Below are positions 2,335 to 54,461 of a stretch of 64,000 nt of DNA, in pieces (positions within the stretch are counted from its first letter, which is position 1; every line of letters begins with the position of its first letter). The stretch lies in assembly GCA_044222185.1 (NCBI GenBank), contig JBGANV010000009.1, positions 32,001-96,000 on the forward strand. The letters are read 5' to 3'. A program made the position numbers and the translations under genes. The notes under the pieces were generated by a model that searched no databases, was not told where the DNA came from, and worked only from the letters and a program-made list of their open reading frames with translations. This DNA comes from Planctomycetota bacterium. Lineage in GTDB: Bacteria > Planctomycetota > GCA-002687715 > CAIWVZ01.

Positions 2335-4527
2335 GTGAACACATCGCGCCTCGTCTCATTCGCCCTGTCAGCCGCGACCCTCGCCGCCGCCGCTGCGGGG
2401 CAGCTCTCGGGTCCCATCAAGCTCTACTCCAACCCCACCTGGTCCAACTGGACCACCGTCCCGTGCCAGGTGATGCCGACGCCGGCAATCAACAACGAGG
2501 CGGCGGACGATTTCGTCGTGAACGGCACGATCATGCGCGTGCTCGCCAACGGCTCTGGATGCTTGACCTGCGGCACCGTCAACGGAGTCTGGGTCCGGTT
2601 CTATGCGTGGAACAACGGCGCCGTCGGAGCGCTGCAGCACGAGCAGTTCGTCGCTTCGACGGACCCGCGCCTCCTCCTCGGCAACTCCTCCACGTCGGCC
2701 ATCGAGGTGACGCTCCCGATCCCGTTCGTCGCCAGCGGTCACCACTTCATCTCGGTTCAGGCGAGCTTCAACCCGGGAGGGACGTGGGGCATGTGGAGCG
2801 CGGATTTGAACTCGCCCCAAGGCTCGGCGGTGAAGGTCCGCACGAACGGCGGCGCCTGGGGTCCATACAACCAGATCTTCGGCGGCGTGCTGAACGCCGA
2901 CATCGACTTCGAGCTGTGGGGCATTCCCAACGTCATCCCGCCGCAGCCGGCGGTGGGACCGTGCGGGACCTGGTCGAATCTTGCGGCCACGTGGCCACAG
3001 GGGACGACGCGGTCGCTGGTCCGTGCCATGCGCGTGATCGGATCTGGCGATGCATGGCTCGTCGGCGAGTCCGACCTGAACCCCAACGGCAACATCGAGA
3101 CGTTCTCCATGGCGCAGCACTGGGACGGCGCCCGGTGGAATCTCGTTCCGACGCCGTCGCCGGCGCCCGCGCCCGGCCTGACCAACTGCGCGCTCTTCGC
3201 CGTCGACGGAACGTCGAGCAGCGATGCCTGGGCGGGTGGCTGGCAGAACATGGTCGTGAATGGCGGGTGGACCGGACAGCAGCTCCTCACGATGTACTGG
3301 GACGGGAACCAGTGGACCGTCGTTCCCGCGCCGCTGCCGACGACGAACCTCGGCGCGAGCGTCAACGGCGCCTCGGTGCGAAGCATCTCCGCTTCGGCAC
3401 CGAACGACGTCTGGTTCGCCGGCAACTGGGTCGATCTCAACCTCGCCACGTCGTTGACGTCTCATCCCGGGTTGCTGATGCGCTGGAACGGGTCGAGCTT
3501 CCAACGGTTCACTCCGCCGATCGTCTCGGGAGCGAGCGGTCAGGCCTTCGCTTCGATCAAGGCGTTGGCGCCGACCGACGTCTGGGCCGTGGGCTCTGCG
3601 ACGAACGGAACCAACTCGCCGGCCGTCGTGTTCCACTGGAACGGGACGTCCTGGACGAACATGCCGCCGCCGAATCCGTATCCGGGCTACTTCATCAACT
3701 ACCGCCAGGTGACGGCGCGCTCGATCACGGACGTCTGGGCGCTTGGCGAGGCGTCGAACATGGTCCCGGGCCAGGGTGGCACGTTCCTCTCGCATTGGAA
3801 CGGCAGCGCGTGGTCGACGGTCCAGGGCCCGGCCTGGTCGTCGACCACCGGCCCCCTCGCGCAGATCCACCTGGACCCGACCGGTGACATCTTCGCCATC
3901 GGGACCGGGGTGTGGCGCTACCACTCCGGAGCCTGGACGCAGATCGAAGCCTTCCCGACCGTCTCAGGGCTGGGACTCAGTTCCATCGATTCGTCCGGGC
4001 CCTGCGAGCTCTGGGTTGCGGGTGGGCAGCAACTGGCACTGCAACCGATGCCTTACGCCGCTCGCACGAACGCGCCCGGCCTGTGGAGCACACGGACGCG
4101 GCTTTCCTGCACCACGCTCGGCGCGCCGGCACTCCTGACCCGCGTGACGCCGCCGCTCGTGAACTCGGTCTTCACGGTGGCGGCCGCCGACGCACAGAAC
4201 TTCCTCAACGCCCCTGGGGGCGTGGCCCAGGCCATCTGGGTGATCGCCGCTCCGTGGGCCACCGCGGCCGGCTGCGGTGCGGCGTATCCGACGGGTGGCG
4301 TGGGCGGTGGAGCCGGCGAGCTCCTGATCGATCCCAACGCGCTCCTCGTCGCCATGGGGCCGACGACGGTGAGCGCGGCCGCGCCGACGGCCACGTGGTC
4401 CATCCCGCTTCCGCCGGTCGTGGCGCTGGTCGGCGTCGAGGTCTCCTCGCAGGCGGCCTTCCTGAACGCGGCGTCGCCCGGACAGATGGTCTTCACCAAC
4501 GCGCTGGACATCCACCTGGGTCTGTGA
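2335..4527 (+). CDS. Secreted beta-propeller-repeat protein with shared C-terminal domain
   Basis: GGAG RBS and GTG 2335; signal peptide NTSRLVSFALSAATLAAAAAGQ; N-terminal AADDF domain; about five repeats of D[AV]W[AL][VG]G...[HR]W[DN]GxxW; distinct C-terminal ~150 aa. Confidence 0.85.
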   Translation: MNTSRLVSFALSAATLAAAAAGQLSGPIKLYSNPTWSNWTTVPCQVMPTPAINNEAADDFVVNGTIMRVLANGSGCLTCGTVNGVWVRFYAWNNGAVGALQHEQFVASTDPRLLLGNSSTSAIEVTLPIPFVASGHHFISVQASFNPGGTWGMWSADLNSPQGSAVKVRTNGGAWGPYNQIFGGVLNADIDFELWGIPNVIPPQPAVGPCGTWSNLAATWPQGTTRSLVRAMRVIGSGDAWLVGESDLNPNGNIETFSMAQHWDGARWNLVPTPSPAPAPGLTNCALFAVDGTSSSDAWAGGWQNMVVNGGWTGQQLLTMYWDGNQWTVVPAPLPTTNLGASVNGASVRSISASAPNDVWFAGNWVDLNLATSLTSHPGLLMRWNGSSFQRFTPPIVSGASGQAFASIKALAPTDVWAVGSATNGTNSPAVVFHWNGTSWTNMPPPNPYPGYFINYRQVTARSITDVWALGEASNMVPGQGGTFLSHWNGSAWSTVQGPAWSSTTGPLAQIHLDPTGDIFAIGTGVWRYHSGAWTQIEAFPTVSGLGLSSIDSSGPCELWVAGGQQLALQPMPYAARTNAPGLWSTRTRLSCTTLGAPALLTRVTPPLVNSVFTVAAADAQNFLNAPGGVAQAIWVIAAPWATAAGCGAAYPTGGVGGGAGELLIDPNALLVAMGPTTVSAAAPTATWSIPLPPVVALVGVEVSSQAAFLNAASPGQMVFTNALDIHLGL

Positions 4528-4657
4528 CGTCTGGCAGGCCTTCGGGCGTTGCGTCTGGTGGTGGCGCCACATACCGTGACGCCGCTGCCTTGCCGCGGCT
4601 GCCGACGCACTGGCGTGATTCGGCGACGCGACCGAGAACACGGCCCGGACCGACGCA

Positions 4658-5131
4658 ATGGACCTGGAAAGCCTGCTCCCGACCCGCATTGCCCTCAACG
4701 ATCTGAAGGTGACCGATGCCGCTGGCGCGTTCCAACACGTCGCCGAGGCTCTGGCTGCCGCCACGATCATCGCCTCTGCTGACGTGACCTTCGTCGCCGA
4801 CGCCTTCGTCGACCGCGAGAAGAAGGGATCGACGGCGCTGGGCTTCGGCATGGCCGTGCCGCACATCTTCTTCGAGCGGGTGGCGACGCCGCACCTCGTG
4901 GTGGCGAAGTTGGGCACGACGGTCGACTTCCGCGCCGTCGACGGCCGCCCTGTGAACCTCCTGTTCTGCCTGATCTCGCCCGAGTCGGCCCGCCCCGCCT
5001 ACCTCCACATCCTCGGGTCGGTGGCACGCGTCGCGCGCGACAAGGACTGGCGGCGCTACATCGAGCGCTCCGCGACCGCAGGACAGGTCTACGACGCCCT
5101 GATCAAGGGCGACAAGTCGCTCGCGCGCTGA
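4658..5131 (+). CDS. ptsN: PTS EIIA component (Fru/Mtl/Ntr family, PtsN-like)
   Basis: DREKKGSTALGFGMAVPH (phospho-His), VDFRAVDGRPVNLLF. Confidence 0.9.
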   Translation: MDLESLLPTRIALNDLKVTDAAGAFQHVAEALAAATIIASADVTFVADAFVDREKKGSTALGFGMAVPHIFFERVATPHLVVAKLGTTVDFRAVDGRPVNLLFCLISPESARPAYLHILGSVARVARDKDWRRYIERSATAGQVYDALIKGDKSLAR

Positions 5132-5138
5132 GGACGGA

Positions 5139-6128
5139 GTGGACGAGCCGCTTCCCGCATCGACACGCGTGACCGTGATCGGTGGTGGTACGGGAATCTC
5201 GCCCTGCCTCTCCGGCATCAAGCACCTGACCGAGCTGGTGACGGCGATCGTCACCGTCGCGGACGACGGCGGTTCGTCCGGGCGGTTGCGGAAGGACTAC
5301 GACATGCTTCCGCCCGGCGACATCCGCAACTGCCTGGTCGCGTTGTCCTCCGCCGAACCCCTGCTCGCCGACCTCTTCAACTACCGCTTCGACGACGCCC
5401 TCCTTCGTGGGCACTCGTTCGGGAACCTCTTCCTCGCCGTTCTCACGAAGCTCACGGGCGACTTCCGCCAGGCGATCGAGCGGGCGCGGATGATCCTCGA
5501 CGTGCGAGGCGTCGTCCTTCCATCCACCACCCAGAGAGTCGTGCTCGTCGCCGAGCATCCGGATGGGACCAAGTCCACGGGCGAACAGTGGATCTCACGC
5601 AGCCAGAAGGCGATCGTGCGACTCCATCTGCGCCCCACGCCGCCCCCGATCTCGTCGGAGATCCGTGCGGCCGTCGAGGACGCCGATCTCCTCGTCATCG
5701 GGCCGGGAAGCCTCTTCACGAGCATCGTCCCGAACCTCCTGGTTCCCGGGATGTGCGCGGCCATCGAGGCGTGCAAGGGGCGCGTCGTCCACGTCGCGAA
5801 CCTCGTCACACAGCCGGGGGAGACGGACGGATTCGACCTCGAGCGCCACGTTCGCGCGATCCAGGAGATCGGCGGGCTGAAGCGCCTCGACATGGTGCTC
5901 GCCCACCGCGGGGACATCCCGGCGGCCATCGTCGATCGTTACAAGGCCTCGGGTGCCGAGGTCCTTCGCGCGCCCCCGCTCGGTGAGCGGATCTGTGGCA
6001 TCCCGATCGTCGGGGCCAACCTGGCACACGAAACCGAGGACCATCGCCTGCGCCACCACAGCTACCGGCTTGCCGAGGAGCTCCGACGGGTCTGCCAGGG
6101 CGTTCATGACGGAGCCCGCAATGGCTGA
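5139..6128 (+). CDS. yvcK: YvcK/GlmR family (gluconeogenesis factor, UDP-GlcNAc-binding)
   Basis: IGGGTG, VADDGGSSGRLR, PPGDIRNCLVAL, GHSFGNL, GPGSLFTSIVPNLL, TQPGET. Confidence 0.95.
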   Translation: MDEPLPASTRVTVIGGGTGISPCLSGIKHLTELVTAIVTVADDGGSSGRLRKDYDMLPPGDIRNCLVALSSAEPLLADLFNYRFDDALLRGHSFGNLFLAVLTKLTGDFRQAIERARMILDVRGVVLPSTTQRVVLVAEHPDGTKSTGEQWISRSQKAIVRLHLRPTPPPISSEIRAAVEDADLLVIGPGSLFTSIVPNLLVPGMCAAIEACKGRVVHVANLVTQPGETDGFDLERHVRAIQEIGGLKRLDMVLAHRGDIPAAIVDRYKASGAEVLRAPPLGERICGIPIVGANLAHETEDHRLRHHSYRLAEELRRVCQGVHDGARNG

Positions 6129-6420
6129 AGCAACTTCCGGAGAAAAACGAGCCGCCCGAGTGACGAAGATCGTGAACAAGCAGGGGTGGCATGCGCGCCC
6201 GTCGGCGCTCGTCGTGAAAACGGCGAACAAGTTCAAGTCGCGCCTGCAGATCACGATCAACGGCGAAACGGCCAACGGGAAGAGCATCATGGAGGTGATC
6301 ATGCTCGCGTCTCCGCTCGGGACCGAGGTCCTGATCGAAGCCTTCGGCGACGACTCCGAGGAGGCCGTCGCGGCGATCATGTCGTTGGTCGAGTCCGGGT
6401 TCGGCGAAGAGCTGGCGTGA
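6121..6420 (+). CDS. ptsH: Phosphocarrier protein HPr
   Basis: NKQGWHARPSA (His15) and NGKSIMEV (Ser46); start overlaps the yvcK end. Confidence 0.95.
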   Translation: MAEATSGEKRAARVTKIVNKQGWHARPSALVVKTANKFKSRLQITINGETANGKSIMEVIMLASPLGTEVLIEAFGDDSEEAVAAIMSLVESGFGEELA

Positions 6421-8162: not shown

Positions 8163-8178
8163 GGCGGCCGGCCGATCG

Positions 8179-11441: not shown

Positions 11442-11444
11442 GCC

Positions 11445-12152
11445 ATGATGATTCGAATCAACCTGCTCCCGCAGGACTTCCGTCGCAAGGAATCGACCCC
11501 GTTCGCCGTCCTGGGACCGATGCTCGCGTGCATCGTCGTCACGCTCGGCGCGGGCTTCGCCTGGGCGTGGCTGCACTTTGCCGAGCTGAACACGCAGCTC
11601 GATCGGCTGTCGGAGCTGACCCAGGTGCTTCAATCCAAGGCTCGAGGCGTGGCGTACGTCGGCGCGCTGAAAGGCGAGCAGGACGACTTCGCCCTCCGCA
11701 AGCAGACGATCCAGGAGATCGCGGGCTCGCGCATGCTCTGGACGAAGAAGCTCGATCAGTTCTTCAACGTCGCCACGAGCGACGAGGACGGTCAGCAGTA
11801 CCTCATCTGGTTGAACACCTTGGAAGTGAAGCCTCCGCCGGGCACCGGCGGCTCCAACAAGAACCCGGTGGGCGAGACCGTTTCGATGAAGGGGTATTGC
11901 CTCGCGGAGCAGAACCCGCTGCAGCACTACAACACCTTCCACGCGGCCATTCGGAATTCCGAGTTCTTCACCGATTTCGTCAGCCTCGACGATCCGTCGG
12001 GCAAGTCCGTGGAATTCGACGACGGGATGCAGCCATCGTCCGCATGGGACATCGATCTGTCGATGATCATGAAGCCGCGTGAGCTGCCGAAGGGGAAGAA
12101 GGCGGCGCAACCACCCACCAACCGCATCGCGGAAGCGGGCAGCAAGAAGTGA
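11445..12152 (+). CDS. pilN: Type IV pilus assembly protein PilN
   Basis: MIRINLLP PilM-binding motif, one TM helix, coiled coil; follows pilM. Confidence 0.9.
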   Translation: MMIRINLLPQDFRRKESTPFAVLGPMLACIVVTLGAGFAWAWLHFAELNTQLDRLSELTQVLQSKARGVAYVGALKGEQDDFALRKQTIQEIAGSRMLWTKKLDQFFNVATSDEDGQQYLIWLNTLEVKPPPGTGGSNKNPVGETVSMKGYCLAEQNPLQHYNTFHAAIRNSEFFTDFVSLDDPSGKSVEFDDGMQPSSAWDIDLSMIMKPRELPKGKKAAQPPTNRIAEAGSKK

Positions 12153-12171
12153 TCTGCAAGGAGCCGTGACT

Positions 12172-13734
12172 GTGGCGGACATCAGACAACACAAGAAGAC
12201 GCTCTGGATCACGATCGGCGTCTGCGTAGTGGGGATCGGTGGCTTCGGCTGGTTCGGGTACCAGGACTGGCTGGCCCGCGACGAAGCGATCACGAAGATC
12301 GCTTCGACTCAGACGGAGATCGAGCGCTCCGAACAGCAGATCCGAAGCATCCCCGAACTCGAAGAGCGCGTGATCGCGCTCCGCGAGAGCGTCAAGGAGT
12401 GCGCGCGGATCCTGCCGGACGACAAGGAGATCAACTCCTTCGTCCAGCAGCTGACGGAGTTCGCGTCGAAGGCCGGCGTGCGGATCATCAAGCTCGACGA
12501 CGAAGACGCGCGCGTCCGTTCGAGTCGCAACAAGAAGGGCGCGACGGCCACGTTCGATCGCGTCGTCTACAAGATCAGCCTCGAGGGTCAGGTCGAGCAG
12601 GTCCTGCGGTTCATGGATCTGTTCGAGGGGCACGAGCGATTCGTGCGCATTTCGACCTTCAAGATCGTTCACCACGCTCAAGCGCAGCCCGGCGTCGATG
12701 CGCTGACGATTCCGCACCAGGTCGACATCGAGTTGGAGACCTACGTCTACAACCCGAAGACGAAGAACTACACCCAGGTCGAGATCCCGCAGGAGGCCAT
12801 GAAGGTCGAGAAGCTGCGACAGTCTGGCAAGGTCCCGGCGGATCCCATGGCCGAGGTTCACCTCGCCGTCTACCACCGCGATGCTCCACGCGATCGCCGC
12901 GACATCTTCCTCGACCCGCGTCTCGTCGGTGACAAGAAGGCCCGCGAGGCCGAGGCTGCGCGCAAGAAGGGCGAGGAAGTCATCAGCCAGTTCGCGGAGA
13001 AGCTGAAGGAAGTGATCGGGAGCATCACGGCCGAGGCGAAGATCGAGAATACGGTCCGGCGCCTCCAGCAACGCGAGAAGACCGATCAGCTCGTGAAGGA
13101 CCTGGGCGCGTCCATCGCCAAGCACAAGGCGGAGACGCCGTTCACGGACGACAAGTTGAAGGAGCGATTCTCGAGGGACGTCGAGCGTCCCTTCGACGAG
13201 ATCGTGCGGGCGCGTGCCAGCGGAGACGACAACACCGCGCAGGCCTTCGCAGTCGAGCACTTGCAGGATCTCATCGGGCGCATGAAGACGGCCGGCGACG
13301 AAGGTCGCTGGGAAGACGTCGTGAGCGTCGGCGACGAGGTCGGCCAGCTGAAGCGCACGGCACCCGATGCCAAGCCGATCCAGGACCTGTTCAAGCAGGC
13401 CGAGAACTTCGAGCGGGTCGCGAAGATCCACATCGAGTTCAAGTCGCGGTCGTACACGTTCGGCGGAGCCGTCTGCTACCAGAGCGATCCGACGCACGCC
13501 GTCGTCATCATCAACGGGCGTCCCTATTCCCCCGGCGAGACCGTCGACGGGGAAGTGCGCGTGAAGACGATCACCCCTGCAGAAGTGACGTTCGAGTTCC
13601 GTGGTGTGACGCTGACGGAGGCGATCAAGTCGTCGGTCGGTGGAACACCTAACTCGGGAAATACCAACGGCGCGAGAAAGAAAACATCGCGGCCCGGCGT
13701 GTTGCCGGCCGATCAGAAGAGAAGGGGCGGCTGA
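12172..13734 (+). CDS. pilO: PilO-like protein with long C-terminal extension ending in a GspB/PilP-like beta domain
   Basis: AAGGAG RBS and GTG 12172; TM helix, coiled coil, ILPDDKEINSFVQQL...LEGQVEQVLRFMDLFEGHERFVRI (PilO); ~300 extra aa ending VIINGRPYSPGETVDGEVRVKTITPAEVTFEFRG. Confidence 0.8.
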   Translation: MADIRQHKKTLWITIGVCVVGIGGFGWFGYQDWLARDEAITKIASTQTEIERSEQQIRSIPELEERVIALRESVKECARILPDDKEINSFVQQLTEFASKAGVRIIKLDDEDARVRSSRNKKGATATFDRVVYKISLEGQVEQVLRFMDLFEGHERFVRISTFKIVHHAQAQPGVDALTIPHQVDIELETYVYNPKTKNYTQVEIPQEAMKVEKLRQSGKVPADPMAEVHLAVYHRDAPRDRRDIFLDPRLVGDKKAREAEAARKKGEEVISQFAEKLKEVIGSITAEAKIENTVRRLQQREKTDQLVKDLGASIAKHKAETPFTDDKLKERFSRDVERPFDEIVRARASGDDNTAQAFAVEHLQDLIGRMKTAGDEGRWEDVVSVGDEVGQLKRTAPDAKPIQDLFKQAENFERVAKIHIEFKSRSYTFGGAVCYQSDPTHAVVIINGRPYSPGETVDGEVRVKTITPAEVTFEFRGVTLTEAIKSSVGGTPNSGNTNGARKKTSRPGVLPADQKRRGG

Positions 13735-26298: not shown

Positions 26299-29200
26299 AT
26301 GAGCATGAGCCAGGCCAGTCGTAGCCTCGTCACCTTCCTCGCATTGACCGCCTGTGTCGCCGCACAGGGCACCTCGATTCCGATGATCACGGTGCGCTAT
26401 CCGGTCGCGACGGGTCCCTTGCAGAACCTCACGGATTCGCCACTGCCCGCGTTCGCCACGACGCTCTTCGTGCCCGGGGCGACCTCGCTCCGCGTGGAGT
26501 TGGCGGATGTCACGCTGGGAACCGACGAGGATGCCGTCGTGTTTCGAGATCCGCTTTCGGGCGACGTGCAACGGATGACCCGCGGCATGCTGAAGCGGTG
26601 GAAGAACTGGACCGGTTGGTTCAACGGCGCGTCGGTCGAGATGATCGTGTCCGTCGCGCCGGGGTCGGTGGCCGCCGTGTCGGTCGCCTCGGTGTTGACG
26701 ATCCCGGCAATCGGGATCGACGGAAACCAGGGAATCTGCGGGTCCGAAGATCGGGTCCTGAGCAACAGCCAGGCGAGCTGCCGCTTGCTCGGCAACGGCA
26801 CGCTCTGCTCGGGCGCCCTCGTCGACAACTGGCCGTACTGCGTCTCGGCTGGCCATTGCGCGGCCCCGTTCCCGGGCGCGCTTGTCGTCGCGGAGTTCAG
26901 CGTGCCCCCGTCCTCGAGCTCGGGAGCGATCGTTCATCCGCCGATCGCGGACCAATACCCGATCGACGAGTCATCGATCGAGTTCGAGGACGGGGGAGCT
27001 GGAGCGGATTGGTCGGTGTTCCGTCTCCATCCGAACTCGAATGGCGAGTCGGCCTTCCTTCGCCAGGGTACCGCGTTCGTTCCGGCGACATCGCTTCCGT
27101 TCCCCGGAACGTCGGTGGTCCGCATGCGTGGGTTCGGAACGCACCCGACGCCGGCGCTGGACCACTCGACACATACGGGCACCGGGATCTACATCGTCAC
27201 GATCGGAGATCGCATCACGCACCTCGTGGACCTGGACAATGGTGACTCGGGCGGCCCTTTGACCAACGAAGCGACGGGCGAACTCATCGGTGTCAACACG
27301 CACGGTGGATGCAACACGGCGATTGGAGCGAACAGCGCGACGAGCATCTTTCGGCCCGCCTTCGTGACGGCTCGGAACAATGCCAGCGCGTGCGGCCACA
27401 CGTCTCTGACGAACAACGTGAGCGCGACCCAGCTCACCTGTGAACCACGAGAGGTCTCGATCGTTCCCTCGACCAGCGCCTGGAACGTCATCGCCGTGTC
27501 GGACTCGAACGACGACTACGACATCTCGATCGAGGGCGTGAGTTCTTCGTTCAACGGCACGGCCTGCGACTTCCTCGTCTCGAACGGCAACAACGCTCCG
27601 GTGTCGGCGCCCGTGAACGCCTGGGTCGAGGGAATCGGTTCCGTCTCGAGTGGGGACGTGCAGTTCCGCATCGCGGGGACGATCAACGTCGGGACCCTGA
27701 ACGTCATCCCGTGGGGTTCGAACCAACTCGTGGAGATCAAGGAGTTCTCGATCACGACGGCGGGCAACTACGACGTCACCGTCGCGGGCGCGGACGGCTA
27801 CAACTGGCGCGTCTATCGCCCGGGCACGAACTCGAACTGGCGGTCGCGCAGCAGCGCGGACTTCAGTGGAGCCGTCAATGGCGGCACGTTGAACGGCCTC
27901 GCGCTGACGGCCGGGACGCATGCGCTGGTGATCTTCAAGAACGGTGAGCCGGGCGTGGGCGATCCGGCCGCGTTCACGGCCGTCATCGCCCCCAGCACGA
28001 CGTCGATCGCGCTGACCTCCACGCCGACGACGGTCACGAATGACGCGCAGGATTTCACCGTGACCCCGGTAGCCGGTGAGTGGAATGCCGTCAGCGTGTC
28101 CTCGAACTCCAACTGGGACCTGGCGATCGGAGGCGGTTACGACAACCAGGGCAGCAACCTGAACGCCTTCGCGATCGCCAACGGCCACGATGGCGCCATC
28201 GCACCGACGGCAGGCGTCATGGTGAGAGCCGCGGGTACCGATCCGGGCACCGCCCAGCACATGTTCTCCACGACGATCAGCGTGAACTCGACCCTCGCCA
28301 CGACGTTGGTCGCCGGTCGGGTGATCAGGCTCTACGAGTTCAACGTCACGACGGCCGGAACCTACGACATCGGCATCACCGGCGGCGAGTTGGACCCGCG
28401 AATGGAATGGCGTCTCTATGCCCCGACCGGGACGTCGCGGTGGAGGAACCGGAGCGACTACATCGCCGCAGGCGACGTCGGCGAGGACTTCCTCACGGCG
28501 TTCTCCCTTTCGACGGGCTGGCACTGCATCGCGGTGTTCCGAGACGACGGCCCGCCTGCCGCCACGATCGGGTTCAACGTCCACGTCTACGCGGCGACCG
28601 CGGTCGACGCGTTGACCGTCGGCGAGAACAACACCGTGACGGTGGATGACCAGATGTTCTCGGTTTCGAGCCCGCCGGCGACGTGGACGGCCGTCGGCTG
28701 CACCAGCGTCGGCACGACGAACGTCAACGTCTACCTGGGATCGGGCGAGTCCAACTTCGCGACCGGCGGAACCACGGATTTCGTCATCGCGAATGGAAAC
28801 GCGGGAACGATTCCCGACTACCGGGGCATCGTCGTGCGCCTCTCGGGCACGGACGCCTACGAAGTCGAGCGTGCAACCGTCACGTCGTTGACGCCGGGAA
28901 CGACGCTCAACGACTCCTACGCCTCGAACCAGGTCCTCGAGGTGTACGAATTCGACGTCCCGATCCTGCGGTCGTTCGACGTCGTCACGACGGGCCCGTC
29001 CTCCTTCGGTTGGAGCCTGTTCGAGCCAGGGACCAACGGAGCGTGGAGGCGGCGCTCGGACGACGTGATTTCGGGGCTCATCGGTGCGGCATCAGTCGTC
29101 TATACGCCGACTCAGACCGGCCGCCATGCGTTGGTCGTCTATCGCAGCGGCGCGACGGGAGCGACGGCCGCCGTGAGCCTCCTCCTCACGCCTCACAATC

Positions 29201-31254
29201 TCGTGCCCACCCTGACGTCCATCGCGCCGACTCAGGCGACGTCGGGAGCCGCGGCGTTCACGCTGTCGGCGACCGGCTCCGGGTTCGTTTCCGGCGCCAA
29301 GGTGCGTTGGAACGGTGTCGATCTGACGACGACGTTCGTGTCGGCGACGCAGCTCACGGCGAGCGTTCCCGCGGCGAACGTCGCGTCGGCAGGCACGGCG
29401 AGCGTGGTCGTCTTCAACCCGGCGCCGGGCGGCGGGACGTCGGCGGCCCAGACGTTCACGATCAACAACCCCGTGCCAACGCTTGCGTCGTTGAGCCCGT
29501 CGTCGGCCACGTCGCTCGGCTCGGCATTCACGCTGACGGTCAACGGCACGAACTTCCGGAGCGGCTCCGTCGTTCGCTGGAATGGAGCGGCGCGAACCAC
29601 GACCTTCGTGAGTACGACGCAGTTGACGGCCTCGATCCCTGCGACGGACATCCAGACGGCGGGGACGGCCACCGTCACCGTGTTCAATGCGTCCCCAGGC
29701 GGCGGCGTCTCCGGGAATGCGACCTTCACGATCACCAACCCGGTCCCGACGACGAGTGCCCTTTCACCGAGTTCCGCGACGTCGCTCGGTGCCGCGTTCA
29801 CGCTCGTGGTCACGGGGACGGGCTTCCGTTCGACGTCGGTCGTCAACTGGAATGGGGCGCCGCTCGGGACGACCTTCGTGAGTACGACGAGCCTGACGGC
29901 CGCGGTGCCCGCAGCGAACATCGCAACGGCCGGTACGGCGTCCATCACGGTTTCGAGTCCGGCGCCGGGCGGCGGGAACTCCGCCGCACAGACGTTCACG
30001 ATCAACAACCCGGCTCCCACCGTGTCACTCATCAGCCCCTCGACGAGGCTCGCGGGGAGCCCATCGTTCACGCTGAACGTCCAGGGGACCAACTTCCGTA
30101 ACGGGTCGACGATCCGGTGGAACGGAGCCCCGCGTGCGACGACGTTCACGTCGGTCAGCGCGCTGTCGGCGACGATCAGCGCCGCGGACGTCGCGAACGC
30201 CGGCACCGTGACCGTGACCGTGTCGACGCCCTCGCCGGGCGGCGGAACTTCGGCCGGCGTGTCGTTCACGATCACGAACCCCGTTCCGGCGCTCTCGAGC
30301 GTGACCCCGAACGTCCTGCTGACCGGCTCGGGGACGACGACGGTGACGGTCGCGGGGTCGGGATTCAACTCGCAATCGAGCGTGCGGTGGAATGGTTCGA
30401 CGGCGGGCGTGACGACGACCCTGGTCTCGGCGACGAGCCTGAGCGTGAGCGTCTCCGCGTCGCTGCTCGCGGCGCCGGGGAGTGCGACGGTGACGGTGTT
30501 GAACCCGCCACCGTCGGGCGGCGTGACCTCGGGTGCCGTCGTCAACATCGTCGGACCGCGTTTGAGCGGGGTCCTTCCCACGGCGCTCCTCGCACCGCTC
30601 ACGGCCGGCGGTCCCTCCGTCAACGTGACGCTGCTCTCGCCGACGGGCGTCTCCGCGGCGGCGACCGTCTTCCACGTGAACGGCGTGCCCGTGACCGCGA
30701 GCTTCGCCGGCCTGCCGGCGTCGGTCCAGATCACGATCCCATCCAGCATTCCGCAGATGCAGCAGGTCGGTGGCGTGACGATCACGGCCAAGAACTTCGG
30801 GGTCTGGACGTCGAACGCCATCCCCCTCGAGATCGAGGACCGCAACAACCAGGGAACGATCGAGCAGAACCCCGTGGCGCCATCCCCAGGTCAGGCCTTC
30901 GCGCTGATGGTCGAGCGCTGCATCCCGGTGGCTCCATTCATCCTCTTCGCCGACTTCACCAATCCGCCGCCGCTGGCTGGGTGGCCGGACGGAGTCTCGA
31001 ACCTGGTACTCGGAGTGAATCCGTTCCCGGCGAACGCGGTCCTGGATGGCCTCGGAGTGTTCGGCCCGGCGAATCCGCTGGCCGTGTTCTCTCCGGACCC
31101 CGTGCTGCCGGCGCTCGGGACATTCGCACTCCCGGGGCTGATCCAGCCCAATCCGCCCCTGGGGATCTCGATCTCGTTGCAAGCCGTGTACCCGGACCCG
31201 ACGTTGCCAGCGGGGTTCCGTCTGACGCACGCGCGCCGGCAGTTCGCCATGTGA
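26299..31254 (+). CDS. Large secreted trypsin-like serine protease with three ~200-aa repeats, five IPT/TIG domains and the shared C-terminal domain
   Basis: AGAAGGA RBS; signal peptide; catalytic triad motifs SAGHC, ADWSVF, GDSGGP; IPT repeats PTLxSxxP...FTLTVxGxxF...VRWNG...TTFVS.T.LTA. Confidence 0.9.
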   Translation: MSMSQASRSLVTFLALTACVAAQGTSIPMITVRYPVATGPLQNLTDSPLPAFATTLFVPGATSLRVELADVTLGTDEDAVVFRDPLSGDVQRMTRGMLKRWKNWTGWFNGASVEMIVSVAPGSVAAVSVASVLTIPAIGIDGNQGICGSEDRVLSNSQASCRLLGNGTLCSGALVDNWPYCVSAGHCAAPFPGALVVAEFSVPPSSSSGAIVHPPIADQYPIDESSIEFEDGGAGADWSVFRLHPNSNGESAFLRQGTAFVPATSLPFPGTSVVRMRGFGTHPTPALDHSTHTGTGIYIVTIGDRITHLVDLDNGDSGGPLTNEATGELIGVNTHGGCNTAIGANSATSIFRPAFVTARNNASACGHTSLTNNVSATQLTCEPREVSIVPSTSAWNVIAVSDSNDDYDISIEGVSSSFNGTACDFLVSNGNNAPVSAPVNAWVEGIGSVSSGDVQFRIAGTINVGTLNVIPWGSNQLVEIKEFSITTAGNYDVTVAGADGYNWRVYRPGTNSNWRSRSSADFSGAVNGGTLNGLALTAGTHALVIFKNGEPGVGDPAAFTAVIAPSTTSIALTSTPTTVTNDAQDFTVTPVAGEWNAVSVSSNSNWDLAIGGGYDNQGSNLNAFAIANGHDGAIAPTAGVMVRAAGTDPGTAQHMFSTTISVNSTLATTLVAGRVIRLYEFNVTTAGTYDIGITGGELDPRMEWRLYAPTGTSRWRNRSDYIAAGDVGEDFLTAFSLSTGWHCIAVFRDDGPPAATIGFNVHVYAATAVDALTVGENNTVTVDDQMFSVSSPPATWTAVGCTSVGTTNVNVYLGSGESNFATGGTTDFVIANGNAGTIPDYRGIVVRLSGTDAYEVERATVTSLTPGTTLNDSYASNQVLEVYEFDVPILRSFDVVTTGPSSFGWSLFEPGTNGAWRRRSDDVISGLIGAASVVYTPTQTGRHALVVYRSGATGATAAVSLLLTPHNLVPTLTSIAPTQATSGAAAFTLSATGSGFVSGAKVRWNGVDLTTTFVSATQLTASVPAANVASAGTASVVVFNPAPGGGTSAAQTFTINNPVPTLASLSPSSATSLGSAFTLTVNGTNFRSGSVVRWNGAARTTTFVSTTQLTASIPATDIQTAGTATVTVFNASPGGGVSGNATFTITNPVPTTSALSPSSATSLGAAFTLVVTGTGFRSTSVVNWNGAPLGTTFVSTTSLTAAVPAANIATAGTASITVSSPAPGGGNSAAQTFTINNPAPTVSLISPSTRLAGSPSFTLNVQGTNFRNGSTIRWNGAPRATTFTSVSALSATISAADVANAGTVTVTVSTPSPGGGTSAGVSFTITNPVPALSSVTPNVLLTGSGTTTVTVAGSGFNSQSSVRWNGSTAGVTTTLVSATSLSVSVSASLLAAPGSATVTVLNPPPSGGVTSGAVVNIVGPRLSGVLPTALLAPLTAGGPSVNVTLLSPTGVSAAATVFHVNGVPVTASFAGLPASVQITIPSSIPQMQQVGGVTITAKNFGVWTSNAIPLEIEDRNNQGTIEQNPVAPSPGQAFALMVERCIPVAPFILFADFTNPPPLAGWPDGVSNLVLGVNPFPANAVLDGLGVFGPANPLAVFSPDPVLPALGTFALPGLIQPNPPLGISISLQAVYPDPTLPAGFRLTHARRQFAM
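29200..30552 (+). repeat. Five tandem ~270-bp IPT/TIG-domain repeats
   Basis: 90-aa period; DNA-level recurrences such as GACGTTCACGATCAACAACCC (29451, 29991) and GACCTTCGTGAGTACGACG (29601, 29871). Confidence 0.9.
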
Positions 31255-36036: not shown

Positions 36037-36824
36037 GCGAGCGGGTGGCGACACCCGGTGCCACAGGCGGCGGCCTCGACCGCGTTCGCGATCTCCGCGC
36101 CTGGGTCCTGGACGTGGGGAACACGCGGACGGCCCTTGGAGCCGTCGCCACCGATGGAACGCTCATCTCCACCTGGCGCGCGCCCACGCCCCGAACCCCG
36201 ACTTCCCCCTGCCGCCTGCCTGACTGGCCGCCCGCCCCGGCGCATGTGGCCTCGGTGGTCGCGGCGGCGGCGACGTGCTGGTCGACAGCCCTCGCGGCCC
36301 TCGGTTGCCCCGTCACCATCTGGGGAGATGACCGCCCGATTCCGATCGCCCACCCCTATCCACCCCCGTCCCGGCCGGGCGCCGACCGGCTGATCGCTGC
36401 TCGGGAGACCTGGATGAGGTTGAGGCGCTCTGCCGTCATCGTGGACGCTGGCTCTGCGGTCACCGTGGACGTGGTGAGTGACGGTGGCGAATTCCTCGGC
36501 GGGGCCATCGCTCCGGGCATACGCGCGCTCGTCGCTGGCATGGCGGCGATCGCCCCCGAACTGCCGCCAGCCGATCCGGCGCAGGTCCGGCCGTACCCTG
36601 CTGGAGCGACCCAGGATGCGGTGAATCTGGGTGTCGACGCCACGGCCTGCGGGATGGCCGTCCGACTCGTGGGGGAGGCACGTGCCTGGATCGGATCCGA
36701 GGCGCCAGTCGTCGTGACGGGTGGTGACGCCGGCCGGTTCGCCGCGTATCTTGCTGCCTGTCAGCCGGCGATCGTCCAAGAGCTCGTCCTGGAAGGCCTG
36801 GCCCGGCTGTCGTTGGAAACGTGA
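36033..36824 (+). CDS. coaX: Type III pantothenate kinase
   Basis: LDVGNTRT, PGADR, VDAGSAVTVD, FLGGAIAPG, VVTGGDA, LVLEGL. Confidence 0.93.
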   Translation: MSERVATPGATGGGLDRVRDLRAWVLDVGNTRTALGAVATDGTLISTWRAPTPRTPTSPCRLPDWPPAPAHVASVVAAAATCWSTALAALGCPVTIWGDDRPIPIAHPYPPPSRPGADRLIAARETWMRLRRSAVIVDAGSAVTVDVVSDGGEFLGGAIAPGIRALVAGMAAIAPELPPADPAQVRPYPAGATQDAVNLGVDATACGMAVRLVGEARAWIGSEAPVVVTGGDAGRFAAYLAACQPAIVQELVLEGLARLSLET

Positions 36825-46331: not shown

Positions 46332-46386
46332 CCCGCCAGAGGCGCCCGCGTCTGCAGCGTGGCGCTTCGGATTCCCTCAATCGCGC

Positions 46387-49400: not shown

Positions 49401-49431
49401 GTCGAGGATCCAACAGGCTAGAGGTTAGACC

Positions 49432-50646: not shown

Positions 50647-50687
50647 CGCTGGTTCGAAGGCGGCGGCCTTTCGCCGGAGGAGGAGAG

Positions 50688-51326
50688 ATGGATTCGCAGC
50701 AATCGAACGATTGCCCCGCCGTCGCGCCGCGCGCGACGGTGCGCACGTCGTGGGCGCGCGTGATGATCTGTTCCGTCGTCGGCGGTGCGGCACTCGTCGT
50801 CGCGACGCTCGTGGCCGTTCCGAAACCGTCACCGACGGCGGATGACGCGGTCGATCAGGTCATCCAGCTGTACGCGCAGGGGAACCGCGACGCGGCGATC
50901 GCCGCCTGCGACGCGGCGTGCGGTCAGTTCCCCGCTGCCTATCGTCCATGGCTCGCCCGCGGCATGCTCGCGGACGACCGCAACGACCTCGACGGCGCCG
51001 AGAAGGCGTACGTCCGAGCGCGTGAGGTCATGGGCGCACACACGTACGGCGTCGAGGACATCGAGATCACCCTGGCCGACATCAAACGCCGCCGCGGCGA
51101 CGCGCCAGGCTGCCTCGCAGAGCTCGACGCCATCCAGTCACGCGGGGCAACTTCAGGCCGCCTGAATCAAGCTCGTGCGCTGGCTTTCGTCGACCTCAAA
51201 CGCTTCGATGACGCCTTGAGAGAAGCGCAATCGCTTGCCGAAAAGAGGGGCGGTGGCGGCGTAGCACGTCAACTCGACAAGCAGATCCGGCAGGCCATGA
51301 AGTCGCAGACCGCAAAGGGTGGCTGA
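50688..51326 (+). CDS. Membrane-anchored TPR protein
   Basis: GGAGGAGG RBS; one TM helix, then helical TPR-like repeats (AAYRPWLARGML...AEKAY). Confidence 0.75.
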   Translation: MDSQQSNDCPAVAPRATVRTSWARVMICSVVGGAALVVATLVAVPKPSPTADDAVDQVIQLYAQGNRDAAIAACDAACGQFPAAYRPWLARGMLADDRNDLDGAEKAYVRAREVMGAHTYGVEDIEITLADIKRRRGDAPGCLAELDAIQSRGATSGRLNQARALAFVDLKRFDDALREAQSLAEKRGGGGVARQLDKQIRQAMKSQTAKGG

Positions 51327-51428
51327 CGCACACCCGCGGGCGCGACTGCGCGGTGGCCGCGATGGCTTCGCGAGCGCTAGACGCCTCGTGTGTTTTTCCA
51401 TCGAAGCTTGCTTCAGGAGACAGTTCTC

Positions 51429-52121
51429 ATGGTCAAGAAGAACCAAGGCTTCACGCTCATCGAGTTGATGATCGTGATCGCCATCATTGCGATCATCGCG
51501 GCAATCGCGATCCCGAATCTGCTCTCGGCGCGCGTCAGCGCCAACGAGTCGAACGCGATCTCGACGCTCCGCAACCTCGTTTCCGCCCAGGCGCAGTTCC
51601 AGTCCAGCGGTGCGATGGACGAGGACGGCGACGGCACGGGCGAGTACGGCTCGTTCGGCGAGCTCTCGGGCGCCGTCAACCTCCAGCGCAACAGCGTTGG
51701 TGTTGCCGCCCGGCTCAACCCGCCGATCTTGCCGGCGACGTTCCAGGTCATCGACGGCAACGGCCGCGCCCAGAAGTCGGGATACCTCTTCCTCATGTAC
51801 CTGCCGGACAACGCCGGCGCGGGCGTGCCGGAAGTCGTCACGACGGGTGGTGCGGGCGCGACCGTCGACCCGAACACGTGCGAGGCCGTGTGGTGCTGCT
51901 ACGCGTGGCCGGTCACGCCGGGCACCACGGGGAACCGTGCGTTCTTCGTGAACCAGCGCGGCGAGATCCTCCAGACCAAGATGGACGCGCTCCCCTACGA
52001 CACCACCACGAACCCGGGTCCGGCAGCTGACGCGGCGTTCACGACCGCCGGCAGCATCACGGTCGCTCCGGCCCTCAACGCCGTCGGCCAGGATGGCAAC
52101 ACCTGGACGCCGCTCGGCTGA
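51429..52121 (+). CDS. Type IV pilin (N-methylation motif) with DUF2950-like C-terminus
   Basis: AGGAG RBS; MVKKNQG|FTLIELMIVIAIIAIIAAIAIPN; C-terminal YAWP...TGNRAFFVNQRGEI. Confidence 0.92.
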   Translation: MVKKNQGFTLIELMIVIAIIAIIAAIAIPNLLSARVSANESNAISTLRNLVSAQAQFQSSGAMDEDGDGTGEYGSFGELSGAVNLQRNSVGVAARLNPPILPATFQVIDGNGRAQKSGYLFLMYLPDNAGAGVPEVVTTGGAGATVDPNTCEAVWCCYAWPVTPGTTGNRAFFVNQRGEILQTKMDALPYDTTTNPGPAADAAFTTAGSITVAPALNAVGQDGNTWTPLG

Positions 52122-52145
52122 TCGACGCTCGATCATTCGAAGCAT

Positions 52146-52202
52146 CGACCGATACCGATCGCTCGCTCCCAAACTCGGGGGCCGAGCGATCGGGTCGTTT
52201 TC
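52146..52202 (+). terminator. Probable terminator after the pilin
   Basis: CCGATCGCTCG...CGAGCGATCGG stem followed by GTCGTTTT. Confidence 0.6.
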
Positions 52203-52721
52203 GGGCCGGTGTGCGCGCCTCGGCACGCGGTCGGACCGGGGGATTGGAATCGGGGGCGAAGGTCATTACCCTGGCCCGCCCTCGGCCATCGCGCGCGACG
52301 GCGCCCCCGGTCGATCCCGGGCGCGCTGGACTGACGGACGCGACGACAGAGGGAAAAAACACCGGCCGGCCGTCACATCCGCGCCACCCCTGGCGCTGAA
52401 GAAACCGTCGGCGCACGCGAAGCGTGACGTGCAAACCCCCGTTTGCACGGAAGCGTGCAATCGAAACTTCCAGGAAGTTCCGGTGTTGGCGTGATCAGAG
52501 GCGTCGAAATGGCTTCCTCCCCCGGGGAGCCACGGACCGAAGCGATGATTCTCCAGGATGTAATGAAGGCGCGGCGCGCAGGTCGCCGATCCATGCGGCC
52601 CGAGAGCAGCGGCGCAGGGAACGCGACTTGCATAGGCGCGCGTGCTCGCTGGTTCCGTAATGTGGCGGCCGATCGCCACACGGGTGTGGAGCCGGGGGAT
52701 GCCGGCCGTAGGAGCGTCACC

Positions 52722-54461
52722 ATGCAGGTTTTGTCATCAGCCAGAGTCCTCGGGGTCGTGGCAGCCGCCTGGCTCGTCGCCCTCGCCAATGGACAGGCCG
52801 TGACCTATCGGTGCAGCGAGGGGGCGGCAGGCGGAGCGGCCCTCGCCGACAGCGCGAGCCCTGCAATCTCGGGGGACGGCCGTTTCGTCGCTTTTTCGAG
52901 CCTCGCACCCAATCTGGTCGTCGGCGACTCCAACGGTGATCGCGACGTTTTCGTCTTCGATCGCGCAACCGGCGTCATGGAGTGCGTGACCATGGGATTG
53001 GGCGGTTCGGGCGCCAACGGCGCCAGTGACCTCCCGTCGATCAGCCAGGATGGGCGTTTCGTCTGCTTCGTGAGTCTCGCGACGAACCTCGTTCCTGGTG
53101 ACAACAACTACTCGCAGGACGTATTCGTGCACGACCGTCTGACCGGCGCGACCCAGCGCGTCAGCGTCGGGGTCGGGGGATCGGATCCGGACCGGGATTC
53201 GGACCGCGGTGCGATCTCCGCCGACGGAAGATGGGTTGCATTCGGCAGCCAGGCAACCAACCTGGTTCCGAACGACACCAACGGATTCTCCGACGTCTTC
53301 GTGTTCGACCGCGCGACGAGCCAGACCGAACGGGTGAGCGTCGGCGCCGGCGGCAGTCAGGGGGACGGACCGAGCTCGTCGGCGTCGATCTCGGCCGACG
53401 GGATCCGCATCGCCTTTGCGAGCGACGCCCGGAACTTCTCCGGCAAGACCGTGATTTCCACGGACGTGTACGTTCGTGACCGTCAGACCCTGACGACGGT
53501 TCTCATCAGCCACGACGCACTTGGCCAGGCGCGCGGGGGCATCACCCCCGTGATCTCGGCGGATGGTTCGACCGTCGCATTCGATGCGCCGGACGCATTG
53601 CTCACGGCAGATACGAACTCCGGCCACGACATCTACGCTTGGAACTTCGTCACCGCCCAGATGCGAATCGTCAGCGTCTCCTCGCTGGGCGATATCGCGA
53701 CCGGGTTCTCGGTCCCTGGCAGCTTTGGGGTCCCCGTAGCCGTCGAGGCCGATTCCTATGGGCCATCGATCTCGGCTGACGGCCGTTTCGTTTCCTTCGG
53801 GAGCCTCGCCAGCAACCTGGTCAACTACGACACGAACGACGGCCCGGACGCCTTCGTTCACGACATGCTGACGAACCAGACACAGCGCGTTTCCGTCGAC
53901 GCCGCGGGGATCCAGTCCGACGCGTCCTGCGCGTGGAACGAGATCCTCAGTACGCTCGAACGGCCGGTGACCAACGTCGCGATCTCCGCAGACGGCGGGC
54001 ACGTGACCTACGACTCGCCGGCGTCGAACCTGGTGCCGGGTGACACGAACAGCGTTGCGGACGTCTTCGCCATCGACCTCTGGCCGCACCTCACCGCCGT
54101 GACGTCGGCGCAGGTCGGGCACGTCGTTCAACTCGATCTCACGGCGCCGCCCTCCGCGGGCAAGGAATACATCGTCGGCCTCTCCGGCACGACGGGCGCG
54201 GGTACGCCGATCGACCGGCGCCGCCTCCCTGTGGTCGTCGACGGACTGCTCATGCTCTCGCTCATGGCACCGGCGCCATACTTCGTGGGCTTCTCGGGCT
54301 CGCTCGATGCCTTCGGCTCGGCCGAGGCCTACATCTCGATCCCGAACGACCCGAATCTCGCGGGCCTGATGTTCTACGCGTCGTTCATCACGATCGACCC
54401 GGCGGCACCGTCGGGTGTCGATGGCATCGCGAACGCCGTGGTACTCCAGGTCGTGAGCTGA
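52722..54461 (+). CDS. Secreted TolB/PD40-like beta-propeller protein with the shared C-terminal domain
   Basis: AGGAG RBS; signal peptide (LVALANGQ); about seven repeats of ISADGRxVAFxSxAxNLVxxDTNxxxDVFVxD; C-terminal ~125-aa domain. Confidence 0.9.
   Translation: MQVLSSARVLGVVAAAWLVALANGQAVTYRCSEGAAGGAALADSASPAISGDGRFVAFSSLAPNLVVGDSNGDRDVFVFDRATGVMECVTMGLGGSGANGASDLPSISQDGRFVCFVSLATNLVPGDNNYSQDVFVHDRLTGATQRVSVGVGGSDPDRDSDRGAISADGRWVAFGSQATNLVPNDTNGFSDVFVFDRATSQTERVSVGAGGSQGDGPSSSASISADGIRIAFASDARNFSGKTVISTDVYVRDRQTLTTVLISHDALGQARGGITPVISADGSTVAFDAPDALLTADTNSGHDIYAWNFVTAQMRIVSVSSLGDIATGFSVPGSFGVPVAVEADSYGPSISADGRFVSFGSLASNLVNYDTNDGPDAFVHDMLTNQTQRVSVDAAGIQSDASCAWNEILSTLERPVTNVAISADGGHVTYDSPASNLVPGDTNSVADVFAIDLWPHLTAVTSAQVGHVVQLDLTAPPSAGKEYIVGLSGTTGAGTPIDRRRLPVVVDGLLMLSLMAPAPYFVGFSGSLDAFGSAEAYISIPNDPNLAGLMFYASFITIDPAAPSGVDGIANAVVLQVVS

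Follow-up and report, generated by a model that had tools for sequence, protein, structure and literature searches.

Three proteins with signal peptides and unrelated cores, encoded in the 64,000-nucleotide window that is the whole stretch of Planctomycetota DNA analysed here, end in copies of one unnamed Ig-like β-sandwich domain (CTD). The CTD occurs in 226 open reading frames (ORFs) of the 7.08-Mb source genome, usually at the C-terminus. We infer, with a probability of about one half, that it is a portable module by which many different proteins are targeted to, docked at or anchored in the cell envelope.

Three genes with a common 3′ module

All three ORFs claimed by the first-pass annotation were found in their places, and the limits that it gave for the domains agree with the revised ones (Table 1) to within ~80 nt. 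The gene limits and lengths of P0139, P0002 and P0019 are those of the gene-caller starts in the protein database. The N-termini are MNTSRLVSFALSAATLAAAAAGQ in P0001/P0139, MSMSQASRSLVTFLALTACVAAQG in P0002 and MQVLSSARVLGVVAAAWLVALANGQ in P0003/P0019. The core of P0001 is a W-rich, propeller-like repeat region that matched no Pfam family. P0002 includes five CoaZ_rpt_PGGG repeats (NCBIfam NF058597, E 1e-140) and a TIG_SUH match at residues 972–1031, which does not lie within the tail. PF26549, precomputed on P0019, was rejected as the CTD because it is missing from the other CTD proteins listed. A 3363-aa open frame that begins in the window has its own CTD beyond it (G000:C8:102729-103121).

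Table 1. Positions in the window of the three genes, their C-terminal domains and the open frame that runs past its end.
Feature	Position	Strand	Description
P0001/P0139 gene, 730 aa	2335..4527	+	signal peptide, propeller-like core, C-terminal domain
P0001 CTD, main (P0003-like) type	4084..4524	+	leave-one-out HMM, profile A1
P0002 gene, 1651 aa	26299..31254	+	signal peptide, protease-like N-terminal part, repeats, C-terminal domain
P0002 CTD, extended subtype	30769..31251	+	core common with main type 30877-31239
P0003/P0019 gene, 579 aa	52722..54461	+	signal peptide, PD40 β-propeller, C-terminal domain
P0003 CTD, main type	54045..54458	+	leave-one-out HMM, AF2 model
3363-aa open frame, start	61099..64000	+	β-helix N-terminal part; continues past window

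Homology of the three tails

When the C-terminal 170 aa were compared pairwise by BLAST, the similarity (best E 0.011–0.047) was too weak for a decision, and family HMMs were therefore used instead. The search set comprised 61,510 six-frame ORFs of at least 60 aa from the source genome, in which the family seeded by the P0003 tail converged at 182 ORFs and that seeded by the P0002 tail included 51. The P0001 tail as the sole seed of an iterative search recovered only itself; hence, its membership was established by a leave-one-out HMM. In HMMs built without the target (Z = 61,510), the P0003 tail was matched with E 5.3e-19 (ORF residues 552–676 of 677) and the P0001 tail with E 2.1e-6 (ORF residues 724–825 of 826; window 4216-4521). 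Profile A1, which contains the P0001 row itself, placed the P0001 domain at contig 36084-36521 (window 4084-4521). P0002 was matched by an HMM lacking any P0002-type member with E 0.0033, the best domain spanning residues 1580–1700 of 1704. When the two families were compared profile to profile (hhalign) after removal of shared ORFs, a value of 95.5% (E 1.6e-8, 97 columns) was obtained, and a second such comparison gave 95.9% (E 6.2e-9, 104 columns). As judged by these comparisons, the P0002 tail belongs to a sister subfamily of the main type, with about 44–51 copies in the source genome.

The low significance of the BLAST matches could be taken to mean that these Ala/Gly/Pro-rich tails from a 67% GC genome are alike by chance or composition. 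This explanation is refuted by the leave-one-out E values (5e-19 and 2e-6), the 96% given by hhalign, the confident AF2 sandwich models and the 2,719 global clusters matched at E 1e-10 or better, and both final HMMs gave no match in the reversed ORF set. Thus, the homology of the three tails, first proposed from an alignment by eye, is borne out, as is the expectation that an HMM of the domain would find many matches in the genome. The motif read by eye also agrees with the most strongly conserved positions in an alignment of 153 rows, P (140), P (127), L (108), G (123), Q (117) and A (89), followed by S-N near the end. The signature is P-x4-P-x-L-x2-G-x5-Q-A ... P-x-G ... S-N, and in P0003 the motif reads IPNDPNLAG......ASF.

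Predicted fold and C-terminus of the domain

The core of the CTD comprises ~105–130 aa and the P0002 subtype ~155 aa; the last strand of the domain reaches the C-terminus. AF2 models of two CTDs (pLDDT 78 and 75.5) are both all-β, that of P0003 (pLDDT 78) having eight strands, and the P-N-D-P...G motif is predicted to form a loop between strands. Structure searches with the models returned generic Ig/FN3/MG-like matches (VIA: best Z 10.2, 107 chains at Z ≥ 8; Foldseek TM scores ≤ 0.55). Type IX secretion system (T9SS) CTD chains were not prominent among them, which is uninformative either way. The common Ig-like fold suggested by the first-pass annotation is thus predicted, as a generic β-rich sandwich; Ig-like being the commonest extracellular fold, it indicates nothing specific.

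Only some members have the cysteine pair: 27 of the 153 rows contain Cys in both columns, and 48 tails have no Cys at all. The C-terminus is uncharged, with an aromatic last residue in 27% of cases (7% in controls) and Gly at position −2 in 36% of CTD ORFs (11% of controls).

Position, copy number and distribution

The CTD ends within 25 aa of the stop codon in 195 of the 226 ORFs and lies away from the C-terminus in the other 31 (~14%). Where more than 60 aa separate the domain from the stop codon, 11 copies are upstream of an unnamed ~230-aa module and six are N-terminal to Kelch repeats; one ORF has three tandem copies. Identification of the ~230-aa module as NIDO-like found no Pfam support and was rejected. 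Among the best 150 global cluster representatives, the CTD is at most 5 residues from the protein end in 148 and within 15 residues in the remaining two, and none contains more than one copy (domain E 1e-5 or better). The tag had been expected always to be C-terminal, and internal occurrence to speak against it. The C-terminal position holds overwhelmingly, whereas the 31 non-terminal ORFs depart from it. The domain thus does not require a free C-terminus, and its role may be simply structural.

The CTD was detected in 42 of 201 sampled Planctomycetota genomes from about 15 families, with 17–112 matches in each of 22 same-class relatives; its distribution is consistent with clades and multi-copy. 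A global search retrieved 20,262 protein clusters with the CTD, and the description of the domain as lineage-specific does not hold if one narrow lineage is meant. The only protein retrieved by a word-indexed search with the tail of P0003 was P0003 itself. Across genome contigs, the degenerate DNA pattern for IPNDPxLxGxxxxxQA matched only two loci: a true CTD in an uncultured-bacterium MAG (E 1.2e-14), and a second locus that was rejected as a chance match. ESM Atlas neighbours (score 0.85) belong to unnamed clusters, most commonly from Planctomycetota, and are a lead only.

It had further been suggested that the T4P/T2SS-like machine encoded in the window handles the tag. The window has three CTD genes with 2.04 expected from 226 per 7.08 Mb, i.e. 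the genome average. Among the 41 genomes compared first, strong full-length matches to the PilO-T2SSB fusion coincided perfectly with the CTD (26/26 vs 0/15). In the 201-genome sample this co-occurrence dissolved and was discarded: with the C-terminal half of the fusion, 32 genomes had both, 10 the CTD only, 17 the fusion only and 142 neither. The CTD without the fusion was found, among others, in all five CTD-positive f63 genomes, and the fusion without the CTD in f28 (6/6). The two profiles hence disagree in both directions, and a tie between the CTD and the nearby T4P/T2SS-like genes is not supported.

Cargo and signal peptides

Cargo regions from the source genome (n = 182) fell into 67 BLAST clusters, which extends to the whole genome the observation that unrelated cores share the tail. 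In a Pfam scan of one representative from each of 40 clusters, 23 representatives had no Pfam family. The families found in the genome cargo include TIG, FG-GAP, multicopper oxidase, di-haem peroxidase, CHRD, peptidases M14 and S8, LamG, arylsulfotransferase and GSDH, among others. Metagenomic cargo (53 of 150 global hits) included M10, trypsin, FG-GAP, RCC1, Kelch, Ig, PD40 and SdrD_B, and no Pfam family had its best stretch inside the tail.

By a crude home-made score, 166 of 218 family ORFs are signal-peptide-like, compared with 810 of 2045 control ORFs, and a stricter signature, [AGS]Q after the hydrophobic core, is present in 140/218 and 435/2045, respectively; as the crude heuristics are positive in 27–49% of control ORFs (40% for the first score), only the enrichment is meaningful. 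Full-length CTD proteins from metagenomes were signal-peptide-like in 76 of 99 cases. Signal peptides, predicted earlier for all carriers of the tag, are present on all three window proteins and enriched family-wide, but not found on every member.

Comparison with named families and sorting systems

No Pfam or NCBIfam domain matched the CTD in the three full proteins or in 22 main-type and 21 P0002-type tails, in agreement with its description as uncharacterised. Named Ig-like Pfam families (Big_x, PKD, fn3, TIG) were not recurrent on the 43 tails scanned. Against PDB chains, sequence profile A1 gave a best E of 0.38 (antibody light chains) and A2 gave no match. No description of the domain was found in the literature searched.

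The T9SS CTD is an Ig-like sandwich that ends many diverse Sec-exported cargo proteins (PMC11285876). The type A domain of Bacteroidota (PF18962 Por_Secre_tail/TIGR04183) resembles the new CTD as a terminal Ig-like β-sandwich on unrelated Sec-exported cargo, and both mark tens to hundreds of proteins per genome. The T9SS domain is shorter (~60–108 aa compared with ~105–155 aa), always last and present once per protein, whereas the new CTD is non-terminal in ~14% of ORFs and in one is repeated in tandem three times. The sequence profiles do not match either: PF18962 and TIGR04183 had no match at E up to 1 in the three proteins and the 22 and 21 tails. SprA_N and Por_Secre_tail were not found in the 93.8%-complete source genome, nor was PEP-CTERM (PF07589); these absences are weak because the controls, too, gave no signal. 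Exosortase (PF09721) likewise had no match in the source genome, the control being positive in one genome. PEP-CTERM/exosortase signals occupy the same position on 'choice-of-anchor' cargo (the P0002 repeats are 'choice-of-anchor Z' in NCBIfam), but are tails of ~25 aa with a motif, a helix and basic residues, whereas the new CTD folds as a domain and lacks a hydrophobic helix at its end. Hence, the CTD is neither a T9SS CTD nor a PEP-CTERM signal.

TIGR03437 of Acidobacteria is also a large, uncharacterised C-terminal domain that closes proteins with TIG/CoaZ-type repeats like those of P0002, and JGI labels 5 of 120 listed homologues of the P0002 repeats as 'TIGR03437 family'. The sequences are nevertheless unrelated: the TIGR03437 HMM had no match on P0002 and the 21 P0002-type tails, and both CTD HMMs had none on the 120 listed homologues.

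Dockerin (PF00404) of cellulosomal proteins is a small non-catalytic module, mostly C-terminal and sometimes internal, on dozens of unrelated secreted enzymes; it is helical, binds Ca and docks non-covalently to a common partner. The new CTD is similarly non-catalytic, mostly C-terminal, sometimes internal and appended to unrelated secreted proteins, and differs in being a β-sandwich. Pfam dockerin had no match in any scan of CTD proteins, tails and cargo.

Possible roles of the domain

The first-pass annotation regarded the tails as a secretion or surface-anchoring tag. Homology, C-terminal position and diverse signal-peptide-like cargo agree with that proposal; the ~14% of non-terminal copies do not. 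Under the envelope-targeting reading, to which we give about one chance in two, cargo would first be exported by Sec, a signal peptide being seen or likely on most members, and all members would be extracytoplasmic. The folded CTD would then be recognised by a common putative envelope component, and this receptor would retain, dock or sort the many unrelated cargo proteins at the envelope or on the cell surface. Some cargo usually regarded as periplasmic (multicopper oxidase, cytochrome c peroxidase, GSDH) argues against envelope targeting. A true secretion signal, recognised by a dedicated outer-membrane translocon (T9SS-like or T2SS-type) and perhaps cleaved afterwards, would share the T9SS architecture of Sec signal peptide, diverse cargo and terminal Ig-like sandwich (PMC11285876). 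It would also suit the hundreds of cargo proteins per genome, the failure to find known C-terminal sorting systems in the source genome (most controls being silent) and the coincidence with the PilO-T2SSB fusion in the first 41 genomes. That coincidence was lost in 201 genomes, however, CTD density in the window is average, HMM similarity to T9SS CTD families is nil, and internal, N-terminal and tandem copies are not known from T9SS CTDs, so that a secretion signal is improbable. A docking module would account for these copies better than a signal that is cleaved, and the function may be closer to the non-covalent docking or anchoring of dockerin or SLH domains.

Alternatively, the CTD may take no part in sorting and be an Ig-like domain of an ordinary kind, structural or ligand-binding, such as a stabilising cap, a spacer, or an adhesin or oligomerisation module. 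Its generic fold (VIA Z 10.2; Foldseek TM ≤ 0.55) and the internal or tandem members are what such a domain would show, and the P-N-D-P...G motif, in a modelled inter-strand loop, may be purely structural. The C-terminal bias, too, may be neutral, since a 3′ end is where a mobile domain is added most readily. However, PKD, FN3 and Big domains are usually internal and repeated, whereas the CTD is single-copy in the best 150 global hits and terminal in 148 of them, and a single copy recurs across 67 unrelated cargo clusters of one genome. The cargo is mostly not carbohydrate-active enzymes, which argues against a substrate-binding CBM. On balance, an ordinary domain seems rather unlikely. A tentative and somewhat doubtful reading is that the CTD is the cargo tag of a new Planctomycetota envelope sorting or secretion system, a functional counterpart of T9SS with a putative receptor or translocon of its own.

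The placement of the very large exported protein sets of Planctomycetota, in the outer membrane or beyond it, is not well understood. One unnamed domain on ~226 proteins of a genome, present in all sampled genomes of the same class, in about one-fifth of the phylum sample and in >20,000 clusters, is a concrete handle for experiments on this placement. If the proposed sorting or secretion system is real, it would handle about 3% of the proteome in certain lineages. Even if the function is mundane, a curated HMM of the CTD would annotate thousands of 'hypothetical' tails and would mark extracytoplasmic proteins in such genomes.

Homology of the three C-terminal domains

The three open reading frames pointed out by the first-pass annotation were confirmed as real in the genome studied (G000; 7.08 Mb in 16 contigs, GC roughly 67%), and their products P0139, P0002 and P0019, read from the gene-caller starts, each carry a classic Sec-type signal peptide at the N-terminus. 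The core of P0001 (the longer form of P0139) consists of W-rich repeats that matched no Pfam family, and P0002 includes five NCBIfam 'choice-of-anchor Z' repeats (NF058597, E 1e-140). Coordinates of these and related features are collected in the table; the window itself is G000:C8:32001–96000.

Pairwise BLAST between the last 170 residues of the three proteins gave weak matches (best E 0.011–0.047), and therefore 61,510 stop-to-stop translations of at least 60 aa from the whole genome were searched with iterative HMMs. The search seeded with the tail of P0003, the PD40 propeller, converged at 182 ORFs and that seeded with the P0002 tail gave 51, while the P0001 tail as sole seed recovered no ORF but itself in this set. 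Neither final HMM had a match in the reversed ORF set. Leave-one-out HMMs recovered P0003 and P0001 with E values of 5.3e-19 and 2.1e-6, respectively, both at the extreme end of the ORF, and an HMM lacking P0002-type members matched P0002 weakly (E 0.0033, residues 1580–1700 of the 1704-aa ORF). Profile-profile comparison of the two families after removal of shared ORFs gave 95.5% (E 1.6e-8), and a second comparison gave 95.9% (E 6.2e-9). The profile of P0002-type tails also cross-matched main-type (P0003-like) tails of other genomes. Judged by these profile comparisons, the three tails are homologous, as had been proposed from an alignment by eye, and a chance similarity, to which the weak BLAST scores would correspond, is exceedingly improbable. 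The motif drawn up by hand coincides with the most conserved alignment columns (P, P, L, G, Q-A, S-N). The P0002 tail is an extended subtype of the C-terminal domain (CTD), expanded mainly in G000 (44 matches) and one relative (30).

Coordinates of CTD-related and other features (G000, genome studied; C, contig)
Feature	Position	Strand	Size	Description
P0001/P0139	window 2335–4527		730 aa (P0139, gene-caller form); 798 aa from first GTG	CTD protein
P0002	window 26299–31254		1651 aa	CTD protein, extended subtype
P0003/P0019	window 52722–54461		579 aa (P0019, gene-caller form)	CTD protein, PD40 propeller
Signal peptides ending [AGS]-Q	window 2335–2403; 26299–26370; 52722–52796			examples
PilO gene	window 12079–13734	+		long C-terminal extension with T2SSB-like piece
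Open frame	window 61099–64000, on to G000:C8:103121	+	3363 aa	beta-helix N-terminal part; own CTD beyond window
S8 subtilase L088	G000:C8:29517–32489 (window 1–489, tail)	-	991 aa	PPC, internal CTD-like domain, terminal ~230-aa module
Kinase-CTD open frame L062	G000:C14:150280–153954		1225 aa	uninterrupted by stops
CTD tandem arrays	G000:C6:815008–819155; C15:351521–359000; C5:36563–46691; C7:609711–619709

Predicted fold

AlphaFold2 models from two paralogue alignments were all-beta sandwiches (pLDDT 78.0, pTM 0.67, eight strands; and pLDDT 75.5, pTM 0.71). Foldseek and VIA-align retrieved generic Ig, FN3 and macroglobulin-type domains only (top Foldseek E 2.7e-4, TM ≤0.55; top VIA Z 10.2, with Z ≥8 for 107 chains); the predicted fold is a generic Ig-like sandwich. 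No PDB chain matched the CTD by sequence, and a search of 43 tails against Pfam and NCBIfam gave no recurrent family. The domain is nameless in Pfam (2025 copy) and NCBIfam (release 20), in agreement with its first-pass description as uncharacterised, and no description of it was found in the literature searched.

The final strand extends to the C-terminus. Aromatic last residues are found in 27% of the 160 terminal main-type copies (7% of control ORFs), and 36% have Gly at position -2 (11% of controls). Only some members have a Cys pair; of the 153 aligned tails, 27 have both columns occupied and 48 are free of Cys altogether.

Copies and cargo in the genome

The CTD was found in 226 ORFs of G000. 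The expected terminal position held for 195, in which the domain ends within 25 residues of the stop; in the other 31 it lies elsewhere, and 26 copies are separated from the stop by more than 60 residues. Downstream of 11 of these 26 lies an unnamed ~230-aa module with the motif FPFYG..NG..F..PRIA.WDDL, which is common to 11 ORFs of G000 and has no Pfam match. Six of the 26 are followed by Kelch repeats (confirmed by Pfam for two), one ORF has three CTDs in tandem, and other copies stand ahead of beta-helix or unknown regions. Tandem arrays of two or three paralogous CTD genes are frequent, and the family may therefore have expanded in part by local duplication.

Single-linkage BLAST clustering grouped 182 cargo regions (≥120 aa) into 67 clusters, two of them large (60 and 42 members) and the rest mostly singletons. 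Among one representative from each of 40 clusters, Pfam identified TIG, FG-GAP, multicopper oxidase, di-haem cytochrome c peroxidase, CHRD, peptidases M14 and S8, LamG, arylsulfotransferase, GSDH, NHL and protein kinase, and assigned no family to 23. In L062, a Ser/Thr kinase is followed by a membrane helix, a helical region, a second signal-peptide-like hydrophobic segment (residues 851–870), a LamG-like part and the CTD; the frame may represent a genuine fusion or may run together two separate genes.

By a home-made score, signal-peptide-like starts occur in 166 of 218 family ORFs versus 810 of 2045 gene-like control ORFs, and the stricter signature, [AGS]Q immediately behind the hydrophobic core, in 140 versus 435. 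The proposal that carriers have signal peptides thus stands as an enrichment, which does not prove export of every member.

Signal peptides in G000 mostly end in [AGS]-Q directly after the hydrophobic core (140 of 155 signal-peptide-like family ORFs and 435 of 762 such controls; Gln makes up 2.7% of residues). This ending resembles the 'Q-rule' described in Bacteroidetes (PMC5837995), an article that makes no use of the word Planctomycetes. Glu_cyclase_2 (PF05096) had no match in G000.

Distribution beyond the genome

A profile of 22 tails, searched against 1.84 billion cluster representatives, matched 20,262 proteins at E ≤1e-3 and 2,719 at E ≤1e-10. Matches were thus many, as the first-pass annotation had envisaged, and among the best 150 the distance from the CTD to the protein end is at most 5 residues in 148 and at most 15 in the remaining two; a second copy at domain E ≤1e-5 was seen in none of the 150. 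Of those starting with M and at least 250 aa long, 76 of 99 have a signal-peptide-like start. Cargo on 53 of the best 150 included matrixin, trypsin, FG-GAP, RCC1, Kelch, Ig, PD40, LamG and SdrD_B; Pfam gave no family for 23 of the 53, and for no family did the best-matching stretch lie in the tail.

The 22 relatives that share the class of G000 (one order with four families in the GTDB sample) are all positive, with 17 to 112 matches each. In a phylum sample of 201 genomes (≥85% complete), 42 are CTD-positive, from roughly 15 families, and presence tracks families (for example, f8 and f25, 5/5 each, versus f7, 0/9, and f15, 0/10). This phylum is probably Planctomycetota, to which ESM Atlas neighbours scoring 0.85 point as a tentative lead.

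Relation to T4P/T2SS-like genes and known sorting systems

The window includes genes for PilM, a PilO-T2SSB fusion, a secretin, a prepilin peptidase, three T2SSE-family ATPases, GspF/PilC and a pseudopilin, and the P0003 gene follows that of the pseudopilin. The three complete CTD genes in the window compare with 2.04 expected per 64 kb from 226 CTD genes in 7.08 Mb. In an initial set of 41 genomes, the fusion had strong full-length matches in exactly those with the CTD (26/26 versus 0/15). With the C-terminal half of the fusion, the 201 genomes comprised 32 with both, 10 with the CTD only, 17 with the fusion only and 142 with neither, this profiling being a single-sequence query for one component that possibly missed divergent versions. 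Genomes with the CTD only include all five CTD-positive members of f63, and f28 has the fusion in 6/6 and the CTD in 0/6. The association is as expected from shared ancestry and breaks in both directions, and the suggested handling of the CTD by this machine is unsupported rather than excluded. The PilO extension occurs in 49 of the 201 genomes; in some relatives it is split or has stop codons within the match.

C-terminal tag domains are an already known kind of module, to which the CTD family has no detectable sequence relation. SprA_N, Por_Secre_tail, exosortase and PEP-CTERM had no match in G000 (93.8% complete), though in control genomes the exosortase search alone gave a match and the other three silences are weak. 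The P0002 repeats bear the NCBIfam label 'choice-of-anchor', and the 120 listed homologues of the repeats include many labelled Acidobacteriota and five to which JGI gives the name 'TIGR03437 family'. The tails of the latter are unrelated to the CTD; hence, in different phyla, different terminal domains fill an equivalent place on similar cargo. Anchoring or sorting modules usually show such a pattern, but this reasoning is by analogy.

Interpretation

Roughly 14% of the copies are non-terminal, one ORF has the domain in tandem, and enzymes that are typically periplasmic are among the cargo. These features keep alive a plain structural or binding role, which is rather unlikely. They also fit less well with a cleaved export signal than with a folded docking module, and a true secretion signal is less likely still.

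With its strictly terminal position and single copy in each protein, the CTD is found on very diverse cargo with signal peptides, in many copies per genome and throughout the clade, as would be expected of a targeting or anchoring tag. The CTD may thus be an envelope targeting or docking module, a reading to which we assign a probability of about 0.5.
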